IMG/VR virus record: IMGVR_UViG_3300002307_000211
Location: 1-25,412 of that record
Source of the DNA: a virus
Taxonomy: Duplodnaviria > Caudoviricetes
Length of the DNA stretch: 25,412 nt
Reading direction: 5' to 3' (one strand)
The position numbers and the translations under genes were made by a program. The notes under the pieces are model-generated. The model saw nothing but the letters and a program-made list of their open reading frames with translations. It was not told the origin of the DNA and made no database searches. Below are positions 4,742 to 24,793 of the stretch, one piece after another (positions within the stretch are counted from its first letter, which is position 1; the number at the start of each line of letters is the position of its first letter).

Positions 4742-5587
4742 TCACTCAGACCAATCATACGATTGGATATATTCATCTTTAGTCATTAGACCTTGTTTTA
4801 CAAATCTATCACAAGCTGCTTTAGCATCACTTGGTAGACTCTCATAAGTTCGTTTACCTCTAGGTTGTCTTCCAGAAGCAGAAGTATTTAAAGCTTCTCC
4901 ATCCATAGGATTCTTAGGTTTTTGTTTTCCAAACTTAGCAGGTAATACGTCACTTAACTCTTCATCTAACTTTTGTAAAAAAGCCTGACCTTGTAGTCCA
5001 GGATTTTCTAATCTAATAGCTTCTGCTAATCCATTTGCAATACCAGTTGTACGTTTATCAATACCAAACCAATCATTCTTGTCTAACCAATTTTGTAAAT
5101 TGACATCAACTACTTGATCTTGTTTAGCTGGTTCTATGGGTTTAACAACAGCTGCTTCTTTAGCTTTTTGAATATCAGCTTTAAGGACATCTGTCATATC
5201 GTCTAATTCAACTACCCGATCACCATCACCAGAATTAATAGCTTCTTTCTTTGCTTGTTTAACCAAAGATAGTTTCTCTTCTAATTCTTGTGCTTTTCTT
5301 TCGTACTGTTCCTGTTGGAACTTTTGAAATTCTTTTGCTACCGCTTTAGCTTCTTGAGCATCTCGTTTAGCTTCGTTTAATTCTTTAAGAAGCTTTTCAT
5401 TGTTCTTGCGAACAATAGGCAAGATCTCTCTACCACGTCTAACAAAAGTTTCTGCATCAACCCAGTCACGTTCATCACTACGAAACTCTTCTTTAGCTAC
5501 CCACCCTTGGGCTCTTGCTTCAGATTCGTAATTTGTTGTATCTGTGGGTTGTCCATTCTCTGTTTGTTGCAAATTGTCATCGCTCAT
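4742..5587 (-). CDS. Putative capsid scaffolding protein
   Basis: 281 aa, charged, long coiled-coil-like stretch; lies between portal and capsid. Confidence 0.6.
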   Translation of the reverse strand: MSDDNLQQTENGQPTDTTNYESEARAQGWVAKEEFRSDERDWVDAETFVRRGREILPIVRKNNEKLLKELNEAKRDAQEAKAVAKEFQKFQQEQYERKAQELEEKLSLVKQAKKEAINSGDGDRVVELDDMTDVLKADIQKAKEAAVVKPIEPAKQDQVVDVNLQNWLDKNDWFGIDKRTTGIANGLAEAIRLENPGLQGQAFLQKLDEELSDVLPAKFGKQKPKNPMDGEALNTSASGRQPRGKRTYESLPSDAKAACDRFVKQGLMTKDEYIQSYDWSE

Positions 5588-5943
5588 TATTTAATTCCTT
5601 TAGCTAAGTGTGGATCTACTATGTCCATGTCAGGATCTAGGATACCTGTAATGTCATCATGATTAACCATTCTATATTTAATATTATCTCTACCTACATA
5701 CATTAATCCAGCGTATTTGGCAATAATAACTTTATCACCAACTTTAATTGGACACTCTTTGTATTCATCTATAAAAGCAGTAGGACCGATTGCCATGACT
5801 TCACCAGTAGTGTTGCCTAGTTGCTCTCGTTCATTCATCTCGTCTGATGATACTATAATACCGCTAGTTGTTTTATTAATGACTACTAATGGTTTTAATA
5901 AGACCCTATTAAGAATTGGGTTAATACCTGTTACATTGCTCAT
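5587..5943 (-). CDS. groES: Co-chaperonin GroES/Cpn10-like protein
   Basis: INPILNRVLLKP, mobile-loop TTSGIIV, GEVMAIGP, IKVGDKVIIAKYAG, DDITGIL match Cpn10 signatures. Confidence 0.85.
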   Translation of the reverse strand: MSNVTGINPILNRVLLKPLVVINKTTSGIIVSSDEMNEREQLGNTTGEVMAIGPTAFIDEYKECPIKVGDKVIIAKYAGLMYVGRDNIKYRMVNHDDITGILDPDMDIVDPHLAKGIK

Positions 5944-10258: not shown

Positions 10259-10287
10259 TTATCTATCCTTTTCTACTATATACTAAT

Positions 10288-10316
10288 ATTATACCACACT
10301 TTTAACAAAAAGTCAA
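10288..10316 (-). promoter_or_regulatory. sigma70-type promoter for late/structural arm
   Basis: Minus strand TTGACT-17 nt-TATAAT with extended -10 TG; AAGGA SD and terS ATG just downstream. Confidence 0.8.
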
Positions 10317-10393
10317 GCTTTATAGTAACTATTTTTACAACCCTGTAGTATTCTTATTAACACGTATAGTATATAATTATTTACAAGTATGTA

Positions 10394-10422
10394 TTGACAA
10401 TATTAACAAAGTATGATATAAT
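10394..10422 (+). promoter_or_regulatory. Perfect-consensus sigma70 promoter firing into the non-coding region
   Basis: TTGACA (10394-99), 17 nt spacer, TATAAT (10417-22), TG at 10414-15. Confidence 0.8.
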
Positions 10423-10503
10423 AAAATATATTATATATATTACATATATTATATATATTAATTATTATTATTATAGTTATTATATATTATATATATTAAT
10501 ATA
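10416..10503. repeat. A/T tract with three exact 17-mers
   Basis: 88 nt with only 2 G/C; ATATATTATATATATTA at 10426-42, 10444-60 and 10482-98. Confidence 0.85.
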
Positions 10504-10761
10504 GTAGACAGGGGAGACGAGACAGTCGTCGACCCCGACGAAGGAGAGGCACTAAGCCGAGGGGAGACACGAATATACAATATTATTTAAACATGATTAA
10601 AGGGCCCTACAAGGCCATAACAAAGTATACATAGTACCCTAGCATCACTTAGGTAAGATAGTGGCCTCCTAAGGCCTCTACAGTCTATCCCCCCTTATAT
10701 TTAAAAATTATATAAAATATAGTAATGTGTCCCTTCCAATTTTATTTGTTTTTTAATTTGA

Positions 10762-10870
10762 CCCCCACCCCCCTTATAATAGACTATGTAGTCCATCCCA
10801 AACCAGGCCCCACCCCCCTACTATCTTACTATCTTCTGCTATCTTACGCTAACATGCCCACATCTTACGT
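10762..10870. repeat. C-run direct repeats and short CTATCTT repeats (candidate terminus/packaging region)
   Basis: CCCCACCCCCCT at 10763-74 and 10808-19; CTATCTT three times in 10821-10845, and CATCTTAC at 10861. Confidence 0.6.
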
Positions 10871-10897
10871 TAATTGTTGTTAAAACAATACCAATGT

Positions 10898-10910
10898 TAT
10901 CAACAACTTA
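10898..10910 (+). promoter_or_regulatory. IHF-binding consensus
   Basis: TATCAACAACTTA is an exact match to WATCAANNNNTTR. Confidence 0.45.
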
Positions 10911-11082
10911 CAACATGCCCATAGTGTATGATGTCTTGTCCAACTCAATACACATCTTAATACCTATTAACATCCAAACAGATACAATCTAACCTAGAAC
11001 AATCCAAACACTTTATACTATATAGATGTGTAGCTACATATTTTGCAGTCGAGGAGCAAAGAAGCTCCTCTTTGTGCGAGGT

Positions 11083-11111
11083 AAAAATACCCTACTATCG
11101 TAGGGTTTTTT
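11083..11111 (+). terminator. Intrinsic terminator-like hairpin (possibly bidirectional)
   Basis: AAAAATA-CCCTAC-tatc-GTAGGG-TTTTTT. Confidence 0.5.
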
Positions 11112-11145
11112 AAAATATGTAGAACTTAGGTGTTATGATATGCAT

Positions 11146-11710
11146 AGAGGCGATGGCGTATACAAACCCACGCTCTGCGTGGCTGTGTCTCCTCGAATGC
11201 CATCGCAAAGACAATTAGACGATTCGTTAAAAGCTATATATAGGCTCTGCCTATGTTGACTTATTGCTTACGCTATCCCGACGGCCCGTGGCCGGACGGG
11301 GCTTAAAGCAATCCAAATGCCACCGAATCTCCCCACACACACACACTAAGAGTCAAGCCTACTCTGGTTTATTTATTTTGTTCTTATTTGAAAATGCTTG
11401 CTTACGCAAGTAAACTAAGAAACGCTTCTCCCTTTAATTGTAATTAATAGATATGTGCGAAGCGTACCAAAACGACTTTTACTATTTGTGTTGCTATCGC
11501 AACTGGTCGGATAAAAGCAAGACACCACTGCGGGAAAAACGATAAAACTGTTTTTGTCCTCGCTTGACTAAGTAAGCAGACTTACCCATCGCATAATATC
11601 TGCCGGACGGCGTCAGATATTCTCCAATGGAGTCCTGCTAACTTATTCAGTCTTGAGCAAAACAATAAGCCACAGAGTAGACCCGACTCCGTCGTGTCCG
11701 TGATGTGGAT
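11146..11710. ncRNA. Candidate large structured non-coding element (RNA or ssDNA), family unknown
   Basis: Nested inverted repeats incl. 11351-11383 with 11655-11688; GC-richer than flanking genes; no convincing ORF. Confidence 0.4.
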
Positions 11711-11773
11711 TGTGACTTCCTTGACACGATATTGTTTCTATTTTTTTTTAACTTCAAATACAAAGGCAACACC

Positions 11774-11926
11774 ATGAAAAACAAAAACAACTTCTGGGAT
11801 ACATTCATCCCTGAAATAGACTGGGACTTCAGAATCCCTCAACCAATGTGGTTAATTGTAGTAGAGTGGGTTTCTGCTACAATTTTTGCAGTAATAGCAG
11901 GTGTAGTAATAGCATTAGCAATATAA
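11774..11926 (+). CDS. Small membrane protein, 50 aa
   Basis: ATG at 11774 after AAAGG; hydrophobic C-terminus WLIVVEWVSATIFAVIAGVVIALAI. Confidence 0.65.
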   Translation: MKNKNNFWDTFIPEIDWDFRIPQPMWLIVVEWVSATIFAVIAGVVIALAI

Positions 11927-11932
11927 CTACCA

Positions 11933-11977
11933 AGAAAGACGGAGGGCGTCTCTTGCGAGCCCTCCGCTTTCTCTTTT
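11933..11977 (+). terminator. Intergenic hairpin (terminator or processing site)
   Basis: AGAAAG-a-CGGAGGGC...GCCCTCCG-CTTTCT then CTTTT. Confidence 0.6.
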
Positions 11978-12006
11978 AAATTTAATTAATTAGTAAAGGA
12001 TTTATC

Positions 12007-12420: not shown

Positions 12421-12458
12421 GGAAAGCACACCCCGCCCCTTGTGGGGGGTGTGTTTCC
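12421..12458 (+). promoter_or_regulatory. Intergenic GC-rich hairpin
   Basis: GGAAA-g-CACACCCC...GGGGTGTG-TTTCC, no U-tract. Confidence 0.5.
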
Positions 12459-12859: not shown

Positions 12860-13186
12860 AATGCGTGTCAAGTGCTTGCTTACGCAAGGTAAAATAAAAA
12901 CAATAGTCTCGCTTTGCTCGTCTATCGTTTAAAACCAACTCTAGAAAGTGATCCAATATGTACACAAAAACCCCTCTAGCAAATGTAACTATGATCAACA
13001 AACACCGTAGAGGGGCCTTACCCCTCTTACAACTCCCCGCTAGACAGTGGTTTATCGACCAACACCAGCCCTCGCTTCGCTCAGTAGAGCAGCCGCGGAC
13101 ATCCTTTTAAATAAAGGGGGGCGGGGAAACGCGTAGTTTTGTAAGTTTTTTCAATAATTTTACAAACAACATACAAGGAATTTAAT

Positions 13187-13642
13187 ATGTATAAAAACTA
13201 TTATGATGATAACATACCTCCAGAAAATTACGAGCCAGAAGTTTTATTAGAACTTAATATTGGTAAAATTGAAACAAAATTGTTATTTGAAGCAAAAGAA
13301 ATCGTAGAGCCTGTTGTTGTAAATAATGTAGACAATTCATCCTTTGAATCTCGTCTAGCAATACTAGCTGCACTCAAAAACCTTGATATTGGAATTGGTG
13401 CTGTTGTAACAAAAAGAGCTAACTATCCATCAACTCGTGTAATGCCTTTGTATTGGGGTATTGTAACTAATATGGTATGTTATATACACGATAAAATAAC
13501 ATATAGACCATATATGGTACGTTGGATTGACGGTACAATGTCATATCACATATATAATGAATTAATTTTAATTTCATATGCACCTGATGAAGATGACTTA
13601 GCGTTGATCAAACTAGAACCAGGAGCAAATAGTAATGTTTAA
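13187..13642 (+). CDS. Hypothetical protein
   Basis: AAGGA SD; C-terminal IGAVV...WGIVT...YMVRWIDG resembles a small SH3-like barrel (weak). Confidence 0.65.
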   Translation: MYKNYYDDNIPPENYEPEVLLELNIGKIETKLLFEAKEIVEPVVVNNVDNSSFESRLAILAALKNLDIGIGAVVTKRANYPSTRVMPLYWGIVTNMVCYIHDKITYRPYMVRWIDGTMSYHIYNELILISYAPDEDDLALIKLEPGANSNV

Positions 13643-13859
13643 TGATGCCATGTATTACCTTACAATCTATTTTCAAAACAAAATGTTTAATGTTATTGTC
13701 TCATTTATGACATTAGATGAATTCATAAAAGAATTTCATGTTAGATTTCATGATTTACCTAATATTGTATCAATAATCAATATTGATGAAGACGAATACG
13801 ACGTAATAGAATCACTAATTGACAACCAATCACAAATCTTTGAAGGAGAAGATAGATGA
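13635..13859 (+). CDS. Small acidic hypothetical protein
   Basis: AGGAG SD, overlaps both neighbours; IDEDEYDVIE...EGEDR. Confidence 0.65.
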   Translation: MFNDAMYYLTIYFQNKMFNVIVSFMTLDEFIKEFHVRFHDLPNIVSIINIDEDEYDVIESLIDNQSQIFEGEDR

Positions 13860-14041
13860 GTAACTTAGTAATCAAAAAAAGAACAAATAACCTATTTGAT
13901 GTATTTTTTGGAGTGGAGGGATGGAATGATTGGGCGTGTTTTAAACGAGAAAAGAAAAGCTTATTGCTTGTCAAAGGTTCACCAGTTCCTAGCAGTGTTT
14001 ACACTGAAATCTATAAACAAATCAACAACAACAAAGGTTAA
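13856..14041 (+). CDS. Small hypothetical protein
   Basis: AAGGAG SD, ATGA overlap; LFDVFFGVEGWNDWACF. Confidence 0.65.
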   Translation: MSNLVIKKRTNNLFDVFFGVEGWNDWACFKREKKSLLLVKGSPVPSSVYTEIYKQINNNKG

Positions 14042-14045
14042 ACCT

Positions 14046-14522
14046 ATGAAAAGATTCAAAGATACTGAAACATGGGCCTCAATATTTAGAGCTATGGAAA
14101 ACAATTCAACTGGTTATAAATTAGATGATCAACATGTAATAAATAAATATGGATATAATTTTAAAGTTAAAAAAATAAATAATGAAAATGACTGGGTAAC
14201 AATATTAAACTTTGAACTTTCAAACACAAGTTTTTGCTGTGGTGTTATGCAATTTGGTAACTTCGGAGAACGTGATCAAGCTAAAGATATCAGTGATGAA
14301 ACATTACTTATGATTTGGAAAATCCTTATCTCTTTCAGCAGAACTAGCTGTCATAAAGGTATTGTTAACGCATGGTTCTACAAGCCTAAAGGTCACACTA
14401 AATATCAACATCCAATTACTGAAAAAATGTTTAAATTAGGTGGTGCAAAAAGAATTGGAAGACAAAGTTATAATCCTAATTCACATAACCAAATCAAAGG
14501 TTATCAATTTACAATACTTTAA
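14046..14522 (+). CDS. Hypothetical protein, CCG/NxNSxN family copy 1 (158 aa)
   Basis: Start moved to ATG 14046 (AAAGGT SD); shares motifs with 15440-15922. Confidence 0.7.
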   Translation: MKRFKDTETWASIFRAMENNSTGYKLDDQHVINKYGYNFKVKKINNENDWVTILNFELSNTSFCCGVMQFGNFGERDQAKDISDETLLMIWKILISFSRTSCHKGIVNAWFYKPKGHTKYQHPITEKMFKLGGAKRIGRQSYNPNSHNQIKGYQFTIL

Positions 14523-14534
14523 AAGGTAGATAAC

Positions 14535-14822
14535 ATGAGAAATTTCTGGATAGTAATGAGAATGCCTACATTTGGCAACGAAGAAGTAGAAGATTCAATT
14601 AGACGTGGTAGAAACGACACCGTATTTACAATGAATAGAGATACCATTGTTAAAGACTTCTACATCACAGAAGAAGCTGCAAACAGGGCTTGTGCAAGAC
14701 TAGCAGGAGAAAATCCTCTAAAACCTTACACAGTAATGCAAATCAGTACAATCCTAGAAACAGGAACACCTACTGTTATAACTAAGAAATTTAACGAACA
14801 AGGAGAACTCGTAATTGCATAA
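14535..14822 (+). CDS. Hypothetical protein
   Basis: 95 aa, AAAGGT SD, in operon. Confidence 0.7.
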   Translation: MRNFWIVMRMPTFGNEEVEDSIRRGRNDTVFTMNRDTIVKDFYITEEAANRACARLAGENPLKPYTVMQISTILETGTPTVITKKFNEQGELVIA

Positions 14823-15453
14823 TAAAACACTAGCTATCGTACCTTTAGGTACTGGAGTTGCCGACGAAATTGCAGGATTATTTGAAAATATCGTAACTTG
14901 GCATCCCGAATTAGAATATGACGCTATTCTACTAGAAGGTGGTAGTGATATTCACCCATCTATTTACAACGACAACAACGTAGCTACTTCTGCTAGTGAC
15001 AACTTATCTAAAAGAGATACAGTAGAAGTTAAAGCAATGAACGATGCAATCTCCAAAAAAGCGTTAATCATTGGCATCTGTAGAGGTGCTCAATTAGCTT
15101 GTGCAATTGCTGGAGGTAAATTAGTACAAGATGTTAACAATCACCAAGGATCTCACGATGTCACAACTATTGATGGTAAGTCTTTCAGGGTATCTTCTGT
15201 ACATCACCAGCAAATGTACCCATGGATGGTTGATCATGAGTTATTGGCTTGGACTCCTAAACATCATTCAGACCGTTACATCGGTGATTCATTAGATGAA
15301 TCTAAACATGAAGTAGAACCAGAAGCAGTCTTTTTCCCTAAAATTAACGCCCTAGCTTTCCAATGGCATCCTGAATGGTATGCATCACAGGGAGAAATCG
15401 ACTTTACAATCACTAAAATTAAAGAAAGGTTATACTCCAATGTCACTAACTGA
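14815..15453 (+). CDS. Class I glutamine amidotransferase / peptidase C26 (PuuD-like gamma-glutamyl hydrolase)
   Basis: AILLEGGSDIHP, RDTVE, nucleophile elbow IGICRGAQL, SSVHHQ, FQWHPE (Cys-His-Glu triad). TTG start with AGGAG SD. Confidence 0.88.
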   Translation: MHNKTLAIVPLGTGVADEIAGLFENIVTWHPELEYDAILLEGGSDIHPSIYNDNNVATSASDNLSKRDTVEVKAMNDAISKKALIIGICRGAQLACAIAGGKLVQDVNNHQGSHDVTTIDGKSFRVSSVHHQQMYPWMVDHELLAWTPKHHSDRYIGDSLDESKHEVEPEAVFFPKINALAFQWHPEWYASQGEIDFTITKIKERLYSNVTN

Positions 15454-15922
15454 TCAGCGTATTATAAAAGTAAATGACAGTATGGATTTCAGAATAAGGT
15501 ATGAAAAACCTACTATGTGTATAAACCAATTTGAATTTAGAGATAACTTTAATAATCTTCTTTTAGAATTTGAAAAAACAGGCTATCCAGCTTGTTGTGG
15601 TATTAATATTCTGTATGGATTTACTTGTAATAGTTTAACTGTTTTCACAGAAGATATTTTTAAAACATTCTTTGAAAAAACAAGAGGAATGTGGCGTAAC
15701 AAAACACAATTCGTTGCTATAAAAGCAAAAGTAATTGGGTGGACTGAAGACGAAGAAGGTGATGAAATATCAGAAGTAATTGGATTCGAAAATAACTTCG
15801 ACTACAATAATTTTATTGAACCTCTGATTAAGTTTACAAAAGCAAAACTTATTTCAGAATTTGTAAATACAAATAGTGGTAATAAATGTTATGTTTATGA
15901 ATTTGACGGAGAAAAACTATGA
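15440..15922 (+). CDS. Hypothetical protein, CCG/NxNSxN family copy 2 (160 aa)
   Basis: Start moved to ATG 15440 (AAAGGT SD); shares motifs with 14046-14522. Confidence 0.7.
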   Translation: MSLTDQRIIKVNDSMDFRIRYEKPTMCINQFEFRDNFNNLLLEFEKTGYPACCGINILYGFTCNSLTVFTEDIFKTFFEKTRGMWRNKTQFVAIKAKVIGWTEDEEGDEISEVIGFENNFDYNNFIEPLIKFTKAKLISEFVNTNSGNKCYVYEFDGEKL

Positions 15923-16683
15923 ATGTACGCATCGGAAGTGACCCAGAAACCTTTTTAATCGACCAAACTGGTAAATTTATTAGCTCAGTAGGTCTTATTG
16001 GTGGTAGTAAAGACGAACCTATGAGTATTGGTGAAGGCTGTACAGTACAAGAAGACAATGTAACTGTAGAATTCAACACACCACCAACAAACGATGAAGA
16101 TAGCTTTGTTAAATCTATCAATTACAACTTAGAATGGATTACAAAACGAGCAAATCAACTCGGATTGACTGTAATGCATACTCCTTCAGCTGTGTTTGAC
16201 GATGAACAGCTTGACAGTGAGGGTGCTAAAACATTTGGGTGTGATCCAGACTTCAATGCTTGGAATTTCAGTAATCCAAATCCTCGTCCGTTAGCTAAAA
16301 ATGCAAACTTACGGTCAGCAGGTGGTCACATTCACATTGAAGCTCCAGAACTTGACAAAGAAGAATTAATCAAGGCTATGGACTTGTTTGTAGGTGTTCC
16401 TATGCTTGAGTTTGATAAAGATGCTAATCGTCGTAAATTATACGGTAAAGCTGGTGCTTATAGACCTAAAACTTATGGTGTTGAATATCGTACAGCATCA
16501 AACGCATGGCTACAAGACGACGACAAAAAACGTTGGGTATTCAAACAAACACAAAAAGCTGTTGAATTTGTAAAAGCTGGTAAACAAATCCCAGATGATA
16601 TGGGTGTTGTTATCCAAAAAGCAATTAACAAATCCAATATTACACTTGCTAAAACAGTTATGAATTGGAGTGCTACAGTATGA
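15919..16683 (+). CDS. phiEco32-like COOH-NH2 ligase type 2 (glutamine synthetase/gamma-glutamylcysteine ligase fold)
   Basis: IGSDPETFL, QEDNVTVEFN, FGCDPDFNAW, RSAGGHIH, RRKLYGKAGAYRPKTYGVEYRT. Confidence 0.88.
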   Translation: MNVRIGSDPETFLIDQTGKFISSVGLIGGSKDEPMSIGEGCTVQEDNVTVEFNTPPTNDEDSFVKSINYNLEWITKRANQLGLTVMHTPSAVFDDEQLDSEGAKTFGCDPDFNAWNFSNPNPRPLAKNANLRSAGGHIHIEAPELDKEELIKAMDLFVGVPMLEFDKDANRRKLYGKAGAYRPKTYGVEYRTASNAWLQDDDKKRWVFKQTQKAVEFVKAGKQIPDDMGVVIQKAINKSNITLAKTVMNWSATV

Positions 16684-17288
16684 ACCCCTCAGCTATTTTT
16701 GAAGATTTTGAAAAGAAATATCAGGGCAGCTTTGTTCAAGTTGAACTGGAAAACAAAGAACCACAGTTTTACCAATTACGAAGAATCCTTAAATCTAGCT
16801 CAAGATTTCCCCAATTAGAATTACTTTCTAATAAAACAGGTACTATTTTGTTAAACTATAATACAAAAGCACGTATTATATTTAAAGTACCAGAAGCAAG
16901 GTATATTCAAATAGGTAATGATGTTGCGTATTACTCTAGATTACCACAAAGACAATGGAAAAAAGGTTTAAATCCTAGCAATACTATTATTACAAACCCT
17001 TTAACTAATTTTATAACATATCGTAGTGATACAGAAGGTTTAAACTTCAAAAGTTTAGAATGTATTTATAACACCAAATATAGTACTAGAGAAGAAGCAT
17101 TTAAAAAACTAAGTAAAGAAAAGTATAAAGGTGTAGCATTAAGTAAAAACATAGCTGTTATATCAAACGAACGGTATAAACATTATATTATTTTCTACAG
17201 ATTTCATACTATTGGCACTATGTGTAAACTAACAGGTGCTATTACCACAAAAATGTTTGAAGACGAGGTTAATGATGAAGTTAAATGA
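16680..17288 (+). CDS. Hypothetical basic protein within ligase cluster
   Basis: ATG 16680 overlaps the ligase stop (ATGA), GGAG upstream; YSRLPQRQWKKGL. Confidence 0.7.
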   Translation: MNPSAIFEDFEKKYQGSFVQVELENKEPQFYQLRRILKSSSRFPQLELLSNKTGTILLNYNTKARIIFKVPEARYIQIGNDVAYYSRLPQRQWKKGLNPSNTIITNPLTNFITYRSDTEGLNFKSLECIYNTKYSTREEAFKKLSKEKYKGVALSKNIAVISNERYKHYIIFYRFHTIGTMCKLTGAITTKMFEDEVNDEVK

Positions 17289-18123
17289 AAGAGTAACGTA
17301 TCCTAACTTTGGACAAAACTATAAAATCACAACTCACAATGAACATAAACTTAATAGATTCTCAGCTCCTATAACAGGTATTGAAATAGAAGTAGAAAGT
17401 GTAGATAGAGATAGTGCAAGCGATAGAATTAACAATGCTTGGACAATAACTACAGATGGCTCATTACGCAATGGTGGGGCGGAATTTATTAGCAAACCAC
17501 TAAATCCAGAATATGTTGAATCAGCCTTACACTATCTATACACTAAGACATTTGACAATGAAATTCATTTTAGTCCTAGAACAAGTGTACATGTACATCT
17601 TGATTGTCGTAAATTAACTTTTAATCAAGTATATAATATTGTAATTTTATATCAATGTTTTGAAAGCCTATTATATAATTTTGCTGGTAAAGAACGTAGA
17701 AAATCTATTTATTGTGTACCTCTTAGCAACTCTATGTTTTATCTTGAATTTGCAAAAGCTATATCATTGTATGAATTCCCACAATGGAATAAATATACTG
17801 GATTAAATTTAGCAAGACTACATGAATTAGGTACTATAGAATTTAGACACTTACGTGGTACTTATGATTATAAAATTATCTGTACTTGGTTAGAAATACT
17901 GTATAAATTATATAATTTCGCTATTAATATAGATACATCAAAATTACAAGTATTAATTATAAATACAAGAAGTCATCTTACATTTCTTAATTTGATACAT
18001 AATGTGTTTGAAGAACATACAGAATTATTAATTAAAAATGAAAACTGGACTAAAGAAATGAAACAAGATTTATCCATAAGCAAATTGTTTATGTCTAAAA
18101 TAAACCTAGAAAGGGCTGCATAA
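17272..18123 (+). CDS. Putative amidoligase (Amidoligase_2-type COOH-NH2 ligase)
   Basis: GIEIEVE, DGSLRNGGAEFIS, RTSVHVHLD, KYTGLN, GTIEFRHLRGT. Start at ATG 17272 or 17275 after GAGGT. Confidence 0.85.
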   Translation: MMKLNERVTYPNFGQNYKITTHNEHKLNRFSAPITGIEIEVESVDRDSASDRINNAWTITTDGSLRNGGAEFISKPLNPEYVESALHYLYTKTFDNEIHFSPRTSVHVHLDCRKLTFNQVYNIVILYQCFESLLYNFAGKERRKSIYCVPLSNSMFYLEFAKAISLYEFPQWNKYTGLNLARLHELGTIEFRHLRGTYDYKIICTWLEILYKLYNFAINIDTSKLQVLIINTRSHLTFLNLIHNVFEEHTELLIKNENWTKEMKQDLSISKLFMSKINLERAA

Positions 18124-19484
18124 TGTGTGGAATTGTTGGAATAATGACAAAAGCAAAAGCTGGATTCTATCATACAGATTTAAATATGTTCAAAAACATG
18201 CTTGTTGTAGATAGTTTACGTGGTGAAGATAGTACTGGTGTGTATGGTGTATTTAAAAACTTACAAGCAAAAACAATTAAAGTTGCTGCAGAACCTCATA
18301 TGCTGTTTAGAACAGAAGAATGGCATGATTTCGAACGCAAAGCAGTAAATAGTATGCGTATTCTTGTAGGACATAATAGATATGCTACTAAAGGTGCTAT
18401 AACCAATAAAAATGCACATCCATTTGATGTAGGTAATATAGTACTAGTTCATAACGGTACAATTCATAATCAAAAAGACTTCAATAAAGAAGTAGAAGTA
18501 GATAGTCATGCTATTGCACACGCCTTAAATGAAAAACCAGCTGAAGAAGTTCTATCAGAAATTGATGGTGCTTTTGCTCTAGTCTGGTACAATCGTACAG
18601 AAGGTAAAGTGTTCTTTGCTAGAAATACACAAAGACCTCTATACTATGTAGATACAGATACTAATGTATACTTTGGATCAGAAGGTACTATGTTAGAATA
18701 TATTTTAAATAGAACAACCAGTTCTGTTGTATATAAAGCACATGCATTTCCTGTTGGTAAAATTATTTCATATGATACAAAAGGTACAAGTGAAACTAAA
18801 GACTTTGAGCTATTCTCCCCAAAGCTAAGTGGGGGGTACAGTCATACTTACCTCCCGAAACAAAAGCATGGGAACAATACTATCCAGAATACTACTGTTA
18901 ACTCTGATAATACTAGATTACCTTACAATACAAAAGTATTATTATCAATGACAAGTTTAAATACAAATGCTAAAGGATATGGTGGTTGTACTGGTAAATT
19001 AGTACACCCAGAAACTAATATTGATTTCTCAGGACAATTTGACACTAATCTTTTAGATAAAGAAATAGAAGAATTAGCTAATAGTGGTAGATATGCCGAA
19101 GGAATAATTTCAGGAAGTTTAAAAACAACCTGTGGATTATCCTACTATGTACAAAAAGTTAAACCAGCAGAAACAATAGCAATATATAATAAATCTAAAT
19201 TACCAAAAATATTATGGGAACATATTTGTAAAAACAACAAATGTGATAAATGTGGTTCAGAAATTCTAACACATGAAGCGGATATGACTAGTGTTAAAGT
19301 TAAAAACTTAACAAATAAATTTAGAGTAGTATGCAGTACGTGTGTAATGGAGGCATTAGATGAGAGAACAAACCCTAGCAACATCCAAAATAGCAATAGT
19401 CCCGTACAAGAATACCAGCAGATCAGCAAACACATTGAGAATTGGGTTGACGCAAGCAGTCAAGAAATCAGTATTATTCATTAA
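18123..19484 (+). CDS. Class II (Ntn) glutamine amidotransferase with C-terminal extension and Zn-finger
   Basis: N-terminal MCGIVG, RGEDSTG, GHNRYAT, NAHPF, HNGTI, VDS, DGAFA, RPLY; C-terminal CDKC...CSTC; no SIS or PRTase domain recognisable. Confidence 0.9.
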   Translation: MCGIVGIMTKAKAGFYHTDLNMFKNMLVVDSLRGEDSTGVYGVFKNLQAKTIKVAAEPHMLFRTEEWHDFERKAVNSMRILVGHNRYATKGAITNKNAHPFDVGNIVLVHNGTIHNQKDFNKEVEVDSHAIAHALNEKPAEEVLSEIDGAFALVWYNRTEGKVFFARNTQRPLYYVDTDTNVYFGSEGTMLEYILNRTTSSVVYKAHAFPVGKIISYDTKGTSETKDFELFSPKLSGGYSHTYLPKQKHGNNTIQNTTVNSDNTRLPYNTKVLLSMTSLNTNAKGYGGCTGKLVHPETNIDFSGQFDTNLLDKEIEELANSGRYAEGIISGSLKTTCGLSYYVQKVKPAETIAIYNKSKLPKILWEHICKNNKCDKCGSEILTHEADMTSVKVKNLTNKFRVVCSTCVMEALDERTNPSNIQNSNSPVQEYQQISKHIENWVDASSQEISIIH

Positions 19485-20160
19485 ACAAGAAAGATGTTAC
19501 AAAACAAAACCTACAAGAATATTAATTAACTGGGGTTCATCAAACCATAATATTAGTTATACAGACAGCAAAGTATATAATAGTCCATATGCAATACAAC
19601 TTGCAAGCAATAAAATATATACTCTTGCTCATTTTACACATAATAATGTACCATGTCCCGCATGGACTACTAATAAAAATACAGCATTAGGTTGGATTGA
19701 AGCAAATAAAACTGTAGTTTGTAGAAAAACAGTAACTAGCCATAGTGGTAATGGTATTGTTTTTGCTGAAACTGCAGAAAATTTAGAAAATATCAATGCT
19801 CCACTATACACAATGTATATCAAAAAAAGAAAAGAATTTCGTGTACATGTCTTTAACAACAAAGTAATTGATGTTCAAGAAAAAAGGAGAAACATAGATG
19901 TTCAAAATGTTGATTACCGTATTCGCAATCATAACAATGGCTTTGTTTTTTGCCGTACTGATGTTAATATCCCTGACAACTTGCATAATGTTGCTTTACA
20001 AGCTGTTTCTGCACTTGGGTTAGACTTTGGTGCTGTAGATATTGTCTGGAATGAAAACCAAAATGAATGTTATGCTTTAGAAGTTAACACAGCACCAGGG
20101 CTTGAAGGCTCTACCCTAGATGCATACACAAAAGCAATAATGGAGGTAGTATATGAATGA
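19360..20160 (+). CDS. ATP-grasp peptide ligase (RimK-like, phage type)
   Basis: LINWG, ASNK, SHSGNGI, EFRVHV, IRN, LGLDFGAVDIV, LEVNTAPGL; GGAGG SD. Confidence 0.88.
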   Translation: MREQTLATSKIAIVPYKNTSRSANTLRIGLTQAVKKSVLFIKQERCYKTKPTRILINWGSSNHNISYTDSKVYNSPYAIQLASNKIYTLAHFTHNNVPCPAWTTNKNTALGWIEANKTVVCRKTVTSHSGNGIVFAETAENLENINAPLYTMYIKKRKEFRVHVFNNKVIDVQEKRRNIDVQNVDYRIRNHNNGFVFCRTDVNIPDNLHNVALQAVSALGLDFGAVDIVWNENQNECYALEVNTAPGLEGSTLDAYTKAIMEVVYE

Positions 20161-20446
20161 AGATTTAATGTGGAAAAAAGAAAATGAAAATAATCCTAAA
20201 ATATATTCTGTAGGATTAACAAATAAAGCGTTTGAAATGTTAGGTCAAATATGGTCGATTGTACCTATCAACGATCGTAAAAGAAACTACAGTGAAAATG
20301 AAGCTTTGTTTACAGTAGAAGGTTCTGATAGTTTAACTACAATAACAGCACCTTTTAACATCAAACGAATGAATTATACTGAAAATGCTATAGAAAGGCC
20401 TGACGAATTAAATTCATCAACAGCTCTATTCTTTGCTGAGGTTTAA
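20153..20446 (+). CDS. Hypothetical protein
   Basis: GGAGG SD, 8-nt overlap with ATP-grasp gene. Confidence 0.65.
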   Translation: MNEDLMWKKENENNPKIYSVGLTNKAFEMLGQIWSIVPINDRKRNYSENEALFTVEGSDSLTTITAPFNIKRMNYTENAIERPDELNSSTALFFAEV

Positions 20447-20447
20447 T

Positions 20448-20627
20448 ATGAGATGTTTATCTTGTAACTGTGTATTAACAGACTTTGAAGCAACACGTAA
20501 AGGTGCTAATACAAATAACTATATAGATCTATGTAATAGGTGTTTTAAATCTATTGCAGAAGATATCGATGTAATTGAAAGATCAGACTTACAAACAGAA
20601 GGAGATTTAAATGGCAATGACAACTAA
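20448..20627 (+). CDS. Small Zn-finger protein
   Basis: ATG 20448 after GAGGT; MRCLSC...DLCNRC (two CxxC). Confidence 0.7.
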   Translation: MRCLSCNCVLTDFEATRKGANTNNYIDLCNRCFKSIAEDIDVIERSDLQTEGDLNGNDN

Positions 20628-20682
20628 ACAACCTGACACTATCATAACATTCCCACAACCTAAGGTTAAACATGTATACTGA
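20611..20682 (+). CDS. Candidate 23-aa microprotein
   Basis: AAGGAG, 6 nt, ATG; MAMTTKQPDTIITFPQPKVKHVY; overlaps both neighbours. Confidence 0.4.
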   Translation: MAMTTKQPDTIITFPQPKVKHVY

Positions 20683-21016
20683 TAAGATTATACCTAAAAA
20701 CTCTCTTGTAAGAGTTCTTAATAGTAAAAATCATCTTACATTTAGAGTAGTAGCATACAATGAAAAATCAAAATTGTACCTACTAGAAACAGCTAACAGT
20801 TTATATAAATCACATTTATATACACCTAGAAACAATATACAACGAATACATATGCCAAAAGCTAAAAAAGTAATTGTAAAACCAATAGAAAGGGTTAGTT
20901 TACCAGAAGCATTAAGAACTTTACTTAACCCAGAACGACAAACAACAACAAACATAGGAACAGATGCTAATAATTTTGGGGTTAATTTTAATAACAGCTT
21001 ACATACAATACCGTAA
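20672..21016 (+). CDS. Hypothetical basic protein
   Basis: 114 aa, AAGGT SD. Confidence 0.55.
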   Translation: MYTDKIIPKNSLVRVLNSKNHLTFRVVAYNEKSKLYLLETANSLYKSHLYTPRNNIQRIHMPKAKKVIVKPIERVSLPEALRTLLNPERQTTTNIGTDANNFGVNFNNSLHTIP

Positions 21017-21777: not shown

Positions 21778-23004
21778 ATGATAGAATTACAAATATTAAA
21801 AAGTTTCTTAACAAAAAATACCTGGGTTGAATATAGAAAGTATATTAATAAAAAAGATTTAACTAAAGAATTAACAACACTGTTTGATATTTTAGATAGT
21901 CATCATGCAAACTTTGATACAGACTTAACTGAATCAGAATTTGAAGTTGTGTGTGAGATGAGTCACAAAATAGACAAAACACATAAAGAAGTGTTGAAAA
22001 CGATGACCGCCTGTCATGTGAGACCAGAGTTAGTTGGGGATTTGCTTACCGCCTATAAGCAAAAAAGTGTATTATCCCGACTTGCTCTGGCAGCTTACGA
22101 TGCATCAGAGGGGCGGAAATCTATCGATACAGTTAACAATATCATTAATGAACTAACAGACCCAAACACTGTAATAAAAGTAGAGGAGAACAACTTTGCT
22201 ACCGAAAACTTAGAAGAATTATACATCACAACTTATGCAAAGCCTGGACTAAGATGGCGTTTAGATACGCTAAATAAATCACTGGGATCTTTGCGTAAGG
22301 GTGACTTTGGTTTTATCTTTGCTAGACCAGAAACAGGTAAAACCACATTCTTAGCATCAGAATTAACACACATGGCTACTCAAACCACAAGACCAATCTT
22401 GTGGATTAACAACGAAGAACAATCTAACAAAGTTATGTTGCGTTGTTATCAAGCTTTATTAGGCCTTACAGACATTGAATTGTTCTCTGACATACCTAGA
22501 GCTCAAGCTGAGTACACTAAACTAATAGAAGGCCGTTTACGCATCTTTAACGGTGTATCTGCATCCGCTAATCAAATTGAAAAGTTATGCAGAGATATAA
22601 ATCCTGAATTAATTGTATTTGATCAAATTGATAAAATCGGTGGATTCAACAATGACCGTGAAGACTTGCGTCTCGGTGCCATTTACCAATGGGCACGAGA
22701 ACTTGCAAAGATTTATGGTCCTGTTATTGGAGTAACACAAGCTGATGGTAGTGGTGACAATCAACGCTGGTTAAATATGAACAACATTGCTAATGCCAAA
22801 ACATCCAAACAAGCGGAAGCTGACTGGATTCTAGGCATCGGTAAAGTTTATGATATAGGTTTAGAATACATTAGATTTCTTAACATATGTAAAAACAAGC
22901 TACAAGGAGATCCTGATACCAACCCAGAACTTCGTCACGGTCGTTTAGAGGTATTAATATCTCCTAGTATAGCTAGATACGAGGACTTAACACACAGTGA
23001 TTAA
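21778..23004 (+). CDS. Replicative SF4 (DnaB/T7 gp4-like) helicase
   Basis: Walker A ARPETGKTT, INNEE, Walker B IVFDQIDK, VTQA, EADWILGIG, CKNK. Confidence 0.9.
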   Translation: MIELQILKSFLTKNTWVEYRKYINKKDLTKELTTLFDILDSHHANFDTDLTESEFEVVCEMSHKIDKTHKEVLKTMTACHVRPELVGDLLTAYKQKSVLSRLALAAYDASEGRKSIDTVNNIINELTDPNTVIKVEENNFATENLEELYITTYAKPGLRWRLDTLNKSLGSLRKGDFGFIFARPETGKTTFLASELTHMATQTTRPILWINNEEQSNKVMLRCYQALLGLTDIELFSDIPRAQAEYTKLIEGRLRIFNGVSASANQIEKLCRDINPELIVFDQIDKIGGFNNDREDLRLGAIYQWARELAKIYGPVIGVTQADGSGDNQRWLNMNNIANAKTSKQAEADWILGIGKVYDIGLEYIRFLNICKNKLQGDPDTNPELRHGRLEVLISPSIARYEDLTHSD

Positions 23005-23500
23005 ATGGATAATTTTAGTACTAAGCTTCTTCCTAATGGTAAAACATGATCCCATACCACTAAAACAAACTGAAACAAAACCATATTATAATATAGTAAA
23101 ATACCTATCTAATAAATACAATAAAGATGAAAAACTAATACAAGAATATGTAAATATAGTTATAAGAGAAACTACAAAATATAACATTGATCCACTCCTT
23201 GTTCTTGCTATGATTGAGACTGAATCTGGTTTTAATAGTAGAGCTTATAATCAATCTGGTGCTATGGGTCTTATGCAAGTAATTCCAAGATATCACCCAG
23301 ATTTAATCACACAAGAACATCAAAGCTTGTATGATCCAAATATGGGTATTAATATTGGTGTTGCTGTACTTGTAAAATTCATACAAAAACATAACGGTAA
23401 CTTTGTAAAAGCAATAAATAATTATGGTGGAGATAGTAGCGGTAATTACTACAAAACAATTTATAGACATTTACAAGAAATAGAACAACATGACATCTAA
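22997..23500 (+). CDS. Lytic transglycosylase (SLT) with hydrophobic N-terminus
   Basis: IDPLLVLAMIETESGFN, SGAMGLMQV, LYDP-x3-INIG, AINNY; N-terminus MIKWIILVLSFFLMV; GTG start with GAGG SD. Confidence 0.88.
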   Translation: MIKWIILVLSFFLMVKHDPIPLKQTETKPYYNIVKYLSNKYNKDEKLIQEYVNIVIRETTKYNIDPLLVLAMIETESGFNSRAYNQSGAMGLMQVIPRYHPDLITQEHQSLYDPNMGINIGVAVLVKFIQKHNGNFVKAINNYGGDSSGNYYKTIYRHLQEIEQHDI

Positions 23501-23681
23501 AATAAAAAGAAAATACACACCATGTTATACTGTTATTCGTGTAGAAAATCCTTGTGTATTAGGAGTATTTGAATATCTAGATCAAGCAAAAGTATTTGCA
23601 GAAAATGTTCAGAAAATATACAATGATTATGACACACCTTTGACAGTAAAAATACAACCCTCTGACTATTGTCACTTCTAA
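23490..23681 (+). CDS. Small hypothetical protein
   Basis: 63 aa, VLGVFEYLDQAK; coupled to the pol gene by TAATG. Confidence 0.6.
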   Translation: MTSKIKRKYTPCYTVIRVENPCVLGVFEYLDQAKVFAENVQKIYNDYDTPLTVKIQPSDYCHF

Positions 23682-24793
23682 TGAAAGTACTATGCATCGA
23701 TGTTGAAACTACTATTAGTAATGGGGGCAATCCTTTTAATTGTAACAACAATCTTGTCAGCGTCGCTTATATTTGCGGCGATAATCAACACTGTAGTGGA
23801 AATTATTTTAGCAATACAATTCAAAGAGAAATTTCCGACGCGGATCGTATTGTTGGGTTTAACATTAAGTTTGATCTGCACTGGTTACGTCGCACTGGTT
23901 ATGACATTTCCATGGTCAATATTTGGGACTGTCAAATAGCAGAGTTTGTGCTATCTAGACAAAAAACTAAATACCCTTCTCTAGCAAACACACTTGCTAA
24001 ATATGGATTAGAACCTAAATTAGATATTGTTAAAACAGAATACTGGGACAAAGGCATTGACACTGATCAAATTCCTTGGGATATTGTTGCTGAATATAAT
24101 ATGCAAGATGTCAAACAAACATTAGAACTATATCATAAACAGCAAGAAATAGCGACACCTATACAAAAAAGATTAATTCACTTATGTTGTATGGATCTGC
24201 TAACACTGCAAGAAATGGAATACAATGGTATCTTTGTAGACTTAGACGAATGTCTTAATAGTTGTGTAGAAGTTAAACTAAAAATAGATTCTATCAAAAA
24301 TAAACTACAAACCAAATACCCACACATTCCTATCAACTTTGACAGCCCAGAACATCTTTCTGCCTACTTGTATGGTGGTATCATCAAAGAAGACAATAAA
24401 GAGCTTGTAGGGCTGTTTAAAACAGGTACAAGAGCTAACACACCTAAATACAAAAACATTGTAATTGAACATCCATTAGCTGGATTTACAAAACCAATAA
24501 CAGGTACTGAATTAAAAAAAGAAGGAGTATGGGGAACAGGTGAAAGTGTGCTACAACAACTAAAAGATAAATCAGGTACAGTAGAATTACTATTACAACT
24601 TGCTCAATTAACTAAAACTAAAGAATTCTTTGAAAGTTTTATTAAAATCAATAAAGACAACAACTGGCCTAAAAATAGAATACATGGTAACTTTAATCAA
24701 GTCAGCACATCAACAGGTAGATTGTCTAGTACTAAACCTAATCTACAAAACATGTGTCCTGAACTACAAACATTTGTAAGGAGTGAAAAATGA
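23681..24793 (+). CDS. polA: Family A DNA polymerase, N-terminal part (3'-5' exonuclease, thumb, start of palm); split gene
   Basis: ExoI CIDVET, ExoII GFNIKFD, ExoIII YNMQDV, EMEYNGI, INFDSPEHL, TSTGRLSSTKPNLQN, then stop; motifs A/B/C absent. Confidence 0.88.
   Translation: MKVLCIDVETTISNGGNPFNCNNNLVSVAYICGDNQHCSGNYFSNTIQREISDADRIVGFNIKFDLHWLRRTGYDISMVNIWDCQIAEFVLSRQKTKYPSLANTLAKYGLEPKLDIVKTEYWDKGIDTDQIPWDIVAEYNMQDVKQTLELYHKQQEIATPIQKRLIHLCCMDLLTLQEMEYNGIFVDLDECLNSCVEVKLKIDSIKNKLQTKYPHIPINFDSPEHLSAYLYGGIIKEDNKELVGLFKTGTRANTPKYKNIVIEHPLAGFTKPITGTELKKEGVWGTGESVLQQLKDKSGTVELLLQLAQLTKTKEFFESFIKINKDNNWPKNRIHGNFNQVSTSTGRLSSTKPNLQNMCPELQTFVRSEK

Follow-up and report, generated by a model that had tools for sequence, protein, structure and literature searches.

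An amide-ligase cassette of the phiEco32/LUZ24/PA11 type, with a C26 enzyme and GNAT-fold and GcvH-like additions, in an IMG/VR phage record

The window analysed here, the complete IMG/VR virus record IMGVR_UViG_3300002307_000211 (25,412 bases; genome estimated to be 54% complete), carries on its plus strand a block of five genes for predicted amide-bond enzymes. From its gene content and motifs, we identify this block as an intact cassette of the phiEco32/LUZ24/PA11 type, of the PA11-like subtype with a class I amidotransferase of the C26 family. This variant is already known: it is annotated in phages PA11 and TC6 and is present in 50 of the 61 ligase-bearing IMG/VR loci used for comparison (several of which are duplicates, and many have cut ends). 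The cassette itself is ordinary for its phage group, and the additions described here are GcvH-like and GNAT-fold genes, a probable amidoligase subunit and a pattern in the occurrence of C26 and gamma-glutamyl cyclotransferase (GGCT). Our preferred reading, held at somewhat less than even confidence, is that the cassette would produce a small amide or peptide by way of a gamma-glutamyl assembly line, rather than serve as a write/erase tagging system.

All five enzyme genes lie on the plus strand, with Pfam scores above the cut-off. They encode a C26/PuuD-like class I amidotransferase with a TTG start (14815-15453; PF07722, E-value 2.5e-16, 60.5 bits against a cut-off of 20.5), a phiEco32-like COOH-NH2 ligase type 2 with a glutamine-synthetase fold and its metal/ATP residues (15919-16683; PF14395, E-value 1.5e-11; PHROG 3815, E-value 2e-70), a second glutamine-synthetase-fold ligase of the Amidoligase_2 family (17275-18123; PF12224, E-value 3.2e-9), a class II (N-terminal nucleophile, Ntn) amidotransferase with an N-terminal cysteine (18123-19484; PF13522, E-value 1.6e-21) and an ATP-grasp ligase of the RimK/MptN/LysX type (19360-20160; PF08443, E-value 6.6e-11). 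Each enzyme was compared with 50-57 homologues from the 61 loci, and all columns conserved at ≥85% were found to be retained in the window, save for one ligase glycine falling in an alignment gap. The retained residues include the C26 triad C89-H185-E187, which is accompanied by a nucleophile elbow, the N-terminal MCG of the Ntn amidotransferase, D213, E227 and N229 of the ATP-grasp ligase, and ExE, H-x-H and E-x-R in both glutamine-synthetase-fold ligases. The C-terminal domain of the Ntn enzyme carries two CxxC pairs, and at least two CxxC motifs are present in 32 of its 52 homologues. Clear transmembrane or signal segments are absent from the cassette proteins (maximum KD19 of 1.61). The cassette enzymes are amide makers and amide breakers only, all soluble by prediction.

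The C26 enzyme matches Lin1909 (E-value 1.3e-6) and PuuD (E-value 2.2e-5). Among labelled families, it comes closest to PuuD and gamma-glutamyl-CDP-amidate hydrolase, with scores far under the equivalog cut-offs for both (29.8 against 266 bits and 44.7 against 250 bits, respectively). Despite these low scores, it may work like one or other of these enzymes. "Gamma-glutamyl hydrolase" is a family label for a predicted activity. For the ATP-grasp ligase, the best models are the alpha-L-glutamate ligases MptN (E-value 2e-16) and RimK, with every score below its cut-off, and neither the RimK equivalog (29.9 against 331 bits) nor rimK_fam (58.8 against 143.4 bits) was reached. Because all these scores fall so far short, substrate specificity cannot be read from the equivalogs.

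The genes abut or overlap all along 13187-20627, with intergenic gaps of -14 to +12 nucleotides across 13187-20446. The ATP-grasp gene is the exception, starting 125 nucleotides within the amidotransferase gene and preceded by its own GGAGG. No terminator-like site was detected on the plus strand between 13187 and 21100, and promoter-like sites are not enriched (48, against 51.7 in shuffled sequence). The window contains no tRNA gene and yielded no Rfam match. These results uphold the first-pass annotation in its description of a tightly coupled five-enzyme operon on one strand with intact family motifs. Its limits for the block, 14046 and 20682, need to be redrawn: the coupled block begins at 13187, and position 20682 sits within a separate open reading frame (ORF) at 20672-21016. 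It had also described the interleaved ORFs as unknown, which is so for part of them only. Three are assignable, as a GNAT-fold protein (14046..14522), its likely paralogue (15440..15922) and a GcvH-like protein (20153..20446), and a fourth, U207 (16680..17288), is a core cassette gene.

The cassette adjoins the replication genes, a short distance 5' of the primase and helicase genes, according to Pfam, PHROG and the 61-locus comparison. Such a position would suit an auxiliary metabolic role, in which nitrogen from glutamine, glutamate or glutathione-type compounds is recycled into phage nucleotide or amino-acid synthesis, and a similar gene set was so interpreted for Phage-ZRK32 (PMC10945688). 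That study tested the whole phage rather than the genes, however, and the role is called speculative in the accessible part of its text. Three ATP-consuming ligases would also be a costly means of freeing nitrogen, and we regard this role as very improbable.

Of the 61 ligase loci, 58 also contain the amidoligase, 53 the ATP-grasp ligase, 52 the Ntn amidotransferase, 50 C26 and 48 U207. The four-enzyme core (ligase, amidoligase, amidotransferase and ATP-grasp) is complete in 47 of the 61 loci, many of which are cut short, and in 24 of the 26 near-complete genomes. The co-occurrence of the cassette genes is therefore far beyond chance, and the co-conservation across phages and the kinship with phiEco32/LUZ24-type clusters proposed at first reading are both confirmed, the latter by a shared order of ligase, U207 homologue, amidoligase, Ntn enzyme and ATP-grasp ligase. 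The ligase was found in at least 314 GenBank phage records, the named hosts being mostly Gram-negative, and some of the phages concerned, which infect Escherichia coli, Pseudomonas or Vibrio, are under study as therapeutic agents. Its best match is the ligase of Alcaligenes phage vB_Af_QDWS535 (hereafter QDWS535; 55% identity). Duplications also occur within cassettes: two ATP-grasp genes are present in each of eight loci (L028, L030, L031, L033, L041, L057, L058 and L059), two C26 genes in L016 and L060, and two COOH-NH2 ligases in L050/L061.

The cassette has been in the literature since 2009 (Iyer et al., as relayed by later papers, PMC5498523 and PMC3890496) and has been printed as a hypothesised peptidoglycan modification module for phiEco32, LUZ24, PaP3, tf, PA11, CW02 and RIO-1 (PMC5498523, PMC11945000, PMC10580990, PMC3890496), three of these sources using the name "peptidoglycan modification cassette" (PMC5498523, PMC11945000, PMC10580990). 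An additional amidotransferase, of class I, is annotated in PA11, and the form of the cassette that contains it is named in a figure legend for TC6 (PMC6209634). The accessible parts of this literature describe the role of the cassette only as a hypothesis, and no product was identified in the literature found, in which subscription journals are little covered. According to the peptidoglycan hypothesis, the cassette would remodel cytoplasmic precursors, by amidation or unusual stem linkages, and thereby prevent superinfection or change the course of lysis. Stem peptides are known substrates of amidotransferases of both classes and of ATP-grasp enzymes (GatD, AsnB and D-Asp ligase), and the cassette enzymes are predicted to be cytoplasmic, as is precursor synthesis. 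However, the block contains no Mur-ligase partner, such as MurT, recognisable with Pfam or PHROG, the named hosts mostly belong to the Gram-negative bacteria, in which receptors are usually lipopolysaccharide, porins or pili, and the papers citing the hypothesis present it, in the parts accessible, as no more than that. We consider a peptidoglycan target fairly unlikely.

U207, which has an SH3/Sm-like N-terminal barrel, behaves as a core cassette gene rather than as filler. All 48 loci containing it have it upstream of the amidoligase, directly adjacent in 45, and it stays with the amidoligase where the ligase has moved (L040 and L057). Homologues were found in PA11 (E-value 4e-33) and IME267 (E-value 2e-5), and residues R86, R90 and G95 are nearly invariant. 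Its structural model (predicted local distance difference test, pLDDT, 91.6) matched only common SH3/Sm-like barrels (Z≤6.2); structure comparison assigned no fold family, and the Atlas gave no usable match. Prediction of a complex between U207 and the amidoligase gave a score of 0.53 (runs of 0.80, 0.53 and 0.52), graded weak, against 0.02 for the best control, with contact agreement of at least 62% and a partner pLDDT of at least 77. The mark for such a complex was reached by 116 of 157 solved pairs and two of 215 mismatched pairs, and scores of 0.60 or below accounted for only 18 of the solved pairs but for both mismatches. Taking gene linkage together with this weak complex score, we lean slightly towards a heterodimer in which U207 would be a subunit of the amidoligase. 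In most of the loci without U207, the amidoligase is longer, being extended at its N terminus by unrelated sequence. We considered whether U207 might be fused into these long amidoligases and rejected this idea, as they contain no U207 profile match. In two such loci, the long extensions bear CxxC repeats (L035:5623-7158 and L050:14799-16340).

The conserved arginines and Sm/SH3-like barrel of U207, together with the proximity of the replication genes, might also be taken to indicate hypermodification of DNA or nucleotides, yielding, for example, glutamyl- or amine-thymine. No match to a 5-hydroxymethyldeoxyuridine (5-hmdU) pathway, a nucleotide kinase or a DNA transferase was found among the scanned ORFs, which leave 46% of the genome missing, and we judge this extremely improbable.

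The cassettes differ in the enzyme available for removing gamma-glutamyl groups. GGCT and C26 families share an activity, the cleavage of gamma-glutamyl amides. The first-pass annotation had recognised no cyclotransferase, and this stands for the contig, with the proviso that it is 54% complete (no PF06094 match), and for the near-complete close relatives G001 and G002, which also lack GGCT. PF06094 was searched for in the genomes of 50 of the 61 loci (11 duplicates, fragments and already-tested loci being omitted) and, in a separate search, in five genomes, and the 27 genomes at least 90% complete were then searched with the window's C26. Nineteen had C26 only, four GGCT only, four both and none neither (Fisher p = 0.004, kinship ignored), and AIG2_2 (PF13772) yielded no further GGCT among these 27 genomes. 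In GenBank, counted by organism name and not matched record by record, Pseudomonas phages gave 121 ligase, 105 GGCT and 16 C26 matches, and Escherichia phages 94 ligase and 77 GGCT matches, with no C26 among the matches listed. This observed pattern is suggestive of a pathway that needs gamma-glutamyl-amide cleavage, supplied by either fold. A role in peptidoglycan remodelling would leave the constant retention of such an enzyme without explanation.

PuuD and gamma-glutamyl-CDP-amidate hydrolase catalyse deprotection steps of gamma-glutamyl pathways, and a temporary gamma-glutamyl handle, added by a ligase and removed by a hydrolase, is a feature of the PuuA/PuuD, EgtA/EgtC and butirosin BtrJ/BtrG pairs. 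We infer comparable chemical steps, substrates and a purpose for the cassette. The assembly line would run in the cytoplasm of the infected cell, where one glutamine-synthetase-fold ligase would use ATP to link the gamma-carboxyl of glutamate to a host amine, such as a polyamine or an amino acid. The second ligase, with U207 probably serving as a substrate-binding subunit, and the RimK-type ATP-grasp ligase would then add further amide links; the Ntn enzyme would either provide ammonia from glutamine or transfer a gamma-glutamyl-bound amine. Finally, C26, or GGCT in other phages, would remove the gamma-glutamyl handle and free the product. The purpose would probably be to alter or neutralise a host metabolite pool in early and middle infection. 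The GNAT-fold and GcvH-like proteins would be lineage-specific additions, probably with binding or decoy functions, rather than essential enzymes of the pathway.

Several observations weigh against this scheme. On the ligase tree, the C26/GGCT pattern reduces to one starred contrast (two in total), with a sign test p of 1, and since only one or two independent contrasts are left, we do not take the Fisher result as proof. The proposal that C26 replaces a missing cyclotransferase gains suggestive support in that none of the 27 near-complete relatives lacks both enzymes, although kinship reduces this to those one or two contrasts. Moreover, C26 and GGCT occur together in four genomes and in QDWS535, C26 could be a plain glutaminase feeding ammonia, the equivalog scores are far below cut-off, and the same five families would fit peptidoglycan-precursor or protein targets too. 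The spermidine-acetyltransferase rows among the structural matches of the 14046 protein reflect PDB redundancy with tied E-values rather than specificity. Polyamine capture is one concrete candidate for the function of the cassette, albeit a quite doubtful one; in Pseudomonas aeruginosa, intracellular polyamines inhibit phage genome replication, according to the accessible part of one report (PMC9992862).

Host proteins were among the targets named in the original write/erase proposal. In a protein-tagging form of it, glutamate or amide tags would be placed on host or phage proteins in a RimK- or Pup-like manner and taken off again by C26 or the Ntn enzyme, while the GcvH-like protein, U207 and the GNAT-fold proteins would be adaptors or substrates. 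The ATP-grasp ligase bears the PHROG label S6 glutaminyl transferase, PafA and Dop are COOH-NH2 ligases acting on proteins, and U207 has an SH3/Sm-like binding barrel and is weakly supported as a partner of the amidoligase. In all clade members in which the upstream neighbour of the GcvH-like gene is visible, that neighbour is the ATP-grasp gene, but the GcvH-like gene was found in only five of the 61 ligase loci and its product is not, therefore, a general substrate. A writer and an eraser co-transcribed during a short infection would create a futile cycle, tagging is less parsimonious than a series of pathway steps in an apparently lytic phage, and the C26 and GGCT families act mostly on small molecules. 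We thus view a tagging system as unlikely and retain the gamma-glutamyl assembly line as the preferred reading.

The GcvH-like protein (20153..20446, plus strand; 97 amino acids) has a lipoyl-carrier fold according to its Pfam GCV_H match (23 bits, cut-off 22.2), and its profile matches 10 H-protein sequences in the PDB (best E-value 3.7e-5). Alignment to 2ka7 and 1zko sets D59 on the lipoyl lysine. It resembles GcvH in sequence and in retaining the glutamate at position -3; it differs in having Asp59 in place of the lipoyl lysine, in being shorter, in having no gcvT or gcvP alongside and in being encoded by a phage. We retained 41 homologues, one of which is a near-identical record of the window, after excluding P0010, P0012 and P0013 (long multi-stretch matches) as spurious. 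The lipoyl site is occupied by Asp in 36, Glu in three and Lys in two, the Lys-bearing homologues being P0014, well above the GCV_H cut-off, and P0017, with a canonical hairpin. The 39 acidic homologues form two subfamilies with 24% identity between them, and W7, G21, T23 and E56 are invariant. In all four comparisons, differences are more frequent at third codon positions than at the other two, as expected for a protein under selection. The second subfamily (P0015-P0046; 21 long proteins) has an ETND hairpin and long, variable tails rich in Pro, Arg and Ala; searches of GenBank phages and of viral, metagenome and genome collections gave no confirmed locus for it, and only L005 was seen in context.

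The GcvH-like gene follows the ATP-grasp gene in the window, L001-L004, L068-L071, L005 and QDWS535. The carriers that were placed on the tree group together in a single supported clade, and we therefore treat this position as inherited and not as independent evidence. The QDWS535 copy, a 94-amino-acid ORF lying between the ATP-grasp gene and the small CxxC gene (L062:12333-12617), is unannotated in GenBank; a tblastn search of GenBank phages with the GcvH-like protein gave nothing, and this copy was detected by profile only. In the E-x-x-X register, QDWS535 has Tyr at the site and L005 has Arg, with Lys one residue later. Common to all the non-Lys proteins is the loss of the lipoyl lysine with retention of the -3 glutamate, a combination that would fit a carrier no better than a non-lipoylatable decoy or adaptor. 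A bolder reading, which we rate as very unlikely, is that a host lipoyl-carrier domain has been rebuilt in this phage clade as a carboxylate-handled carrier. The neighbouring ATP-grasp ligase would load an amino acid or amine onto Asp59, the chain would be lengthened by the pair of glutamine-synthetase-fold ligases, one of them in a heterodimer with U207, and its release would fall to C26 or the Ntn enzyme. In a second bold form, the protein would be a decoy that resists lipoylation and traps host lipoyl ligases or glycine-cleavage partners. The Tyr and Arg in two diverged homologues, and the presence of the gene in so few of the ligase loci, argue against a covalent Asp59 handle. If true, the carrier form would amount to carrier-tethered non-ribosomal amide synthesis by a phage, with a new kind of carrier. 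A non-lipoylatable phage H-protein homologue, if functional, would represent a new type of device, whether for host takeover or as a carrier. No report of a phage H-protein without the lipoyl lysine was found in the literature retrieved, which covers subscription journals little.

The protein encoded at 14046..14522 (plus strand) belongs to a family defined by "CCG ... NxNSxN" motifs and has a GNAT fold in its AlphaFold2 model (pLDDT 96). Foldseek gave a best E-value of 5.7e-6 and 161 PDB matches at E≤1e-3, all those listed being GNATs. The protein encoded at 15440..15922 (plus strand) shares both motifs and is a likely paralogue, from which its fold is presumed. Direct BLASTP between the two was not significant (E-value 0.033). 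A leave-out profile hidden Markov model, from seeds chosen by motif and built without the window and L001-L004, matched 15440 (E-value 2e-7) and the L001 orthologue of 14046 (E-value 7e-8), with only 0.053 for 14046 itself. The family is present in 16 of the 61 loci and in QDWS535; a weak leave-out match follows the ATP-grasp gene in L017, with a GNAT Pfam match under the cut-off. No convincing Pfam or PDB sequence match was found for the family, and DUF1122, suggested by the Atlas, is an unconfirmed lead only. A motif scan found the acetyl-CoA loop of motif A (Q/R-x-x-G-x-G/A) in neither 14046 nor 15440; the expression matched three of 26 family members, convincingly and at the expected place only in L006. 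The pair are probably degenerate acyltransferases or binding proteins, and any role for the twin cysteines is speculation.

The remaining ORFs of the block are small. Three coupled, lineage-specific ORFs (151, 74 and 61 amino acids; 13187..14041, plus strand) come first, in the same order in L001-L004 and L068/L071, and have no convincing family match in Pfam or PHROG. A 95-amino-acid ORF (14535..14822, plus strand), kept in the close clade (four of the 61 loci), has a weak T4 Y13H match under the Pfam cut-off, and a 59-amino-acid CxxC...CxxC protein (20448..20627, plus strand; 16 of the 61 loci) is a clade marker before the primase, only possibly connected with the cassette. Elsewhere, the head genes (terminase, portal, capsid and GroES) run down the minus strand from about 10258, and the two best terminase matches are an uncultured Manatee Spring virus and QDWS535. 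The GroES-like co-chaperonin lies amid these head genes (5587-5943, minus strand; PHROG 3188, E-value 8e-17). The plus-strand arm, from about 12000, passes through the cassette to the primase and helicase genes, a transglycosylase gene and an ORF that bears DNA polymerase A domains. The SLT transglycosylase (22997-23500, plus strand), with a candidate N-terminal hydrophobic stretch, is encoded amid the replication genes and not within a lysis module. The PolA-type ORF (23669-24793, plus strand) has only 374 amino acids, covering the exonuclease and the beginning of the polymerase domain. In L001 and L004, too, an ORF of equal length comes after the helicase region, and the polymerase is therefore probably split in the window's clade. 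Between the two arms, about 1.7 kb (10260-12000) is almost without genes and gave no Rfam match. It contains back-to-back, near-perfect sigma-70 sites (plus strand 10394-10422, 12/12; minus strand 10316-10288, 11/12), an AT-repeat tract (10419-10498) and a hairpin (11089-11106), another hairpin being found at 12431-12451, and it may correspond to genome termini or a divergent control region. A 32-nucleotide repeat with a TTGCTTACGCAA core is present in non-coding DNA as two copies with 78% identity (11392-11423 and 12870-12901), and is a possible regulator site.

The closest known counterparts are the Pseudomonas phages PA11 and TC6 (Pa11virus/Paundecimvirus) and QDWS535, which, like the window, have C26, the COOH-NH2 ligase, U207, the amidoligase, the Ntn amidotransferase and the ATP-grasp ligase before the primase and helicase. 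In PA11, however, the amidotransferase precedes the ligase, and none of the 10 coding sequences tested matched the CCG-family or GcvH-like profiles. QDWS535 shares the gene order of the window, with a CCG-family gene before the ligase and the GcvH-like ORF after the ATP-grasp gene, and thus provides a cultured model; it differs in also possessing GGCT, in having Tyr rather than Asp at the GcvH-like site and in the lack of annotation of that ORF. From the ligase through the U207 homologue, the amidoligase and the Ntn enzyme to the ATP-grasp ligase, the gene order is identical in the phiEco32/kuravirus, LUZ24/PaP3/tf and RIO-1 types, but these carry GGCT, whereas the contig of the window encodes C26 and lacks GGCT. 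Among cellular systems, PuuA/PuuD, EgtA/EgtC and BtrJ/BtrI/BtrG resemble the cassette in pairing a glutamate ligase with a glutamate-removing enzyme of the C26, Ntn or GGCT type; the cassette differs from them in having no oxidoreductases or tailoring enzymes, in its low equivalog scores and in containing three ligases rather than one.

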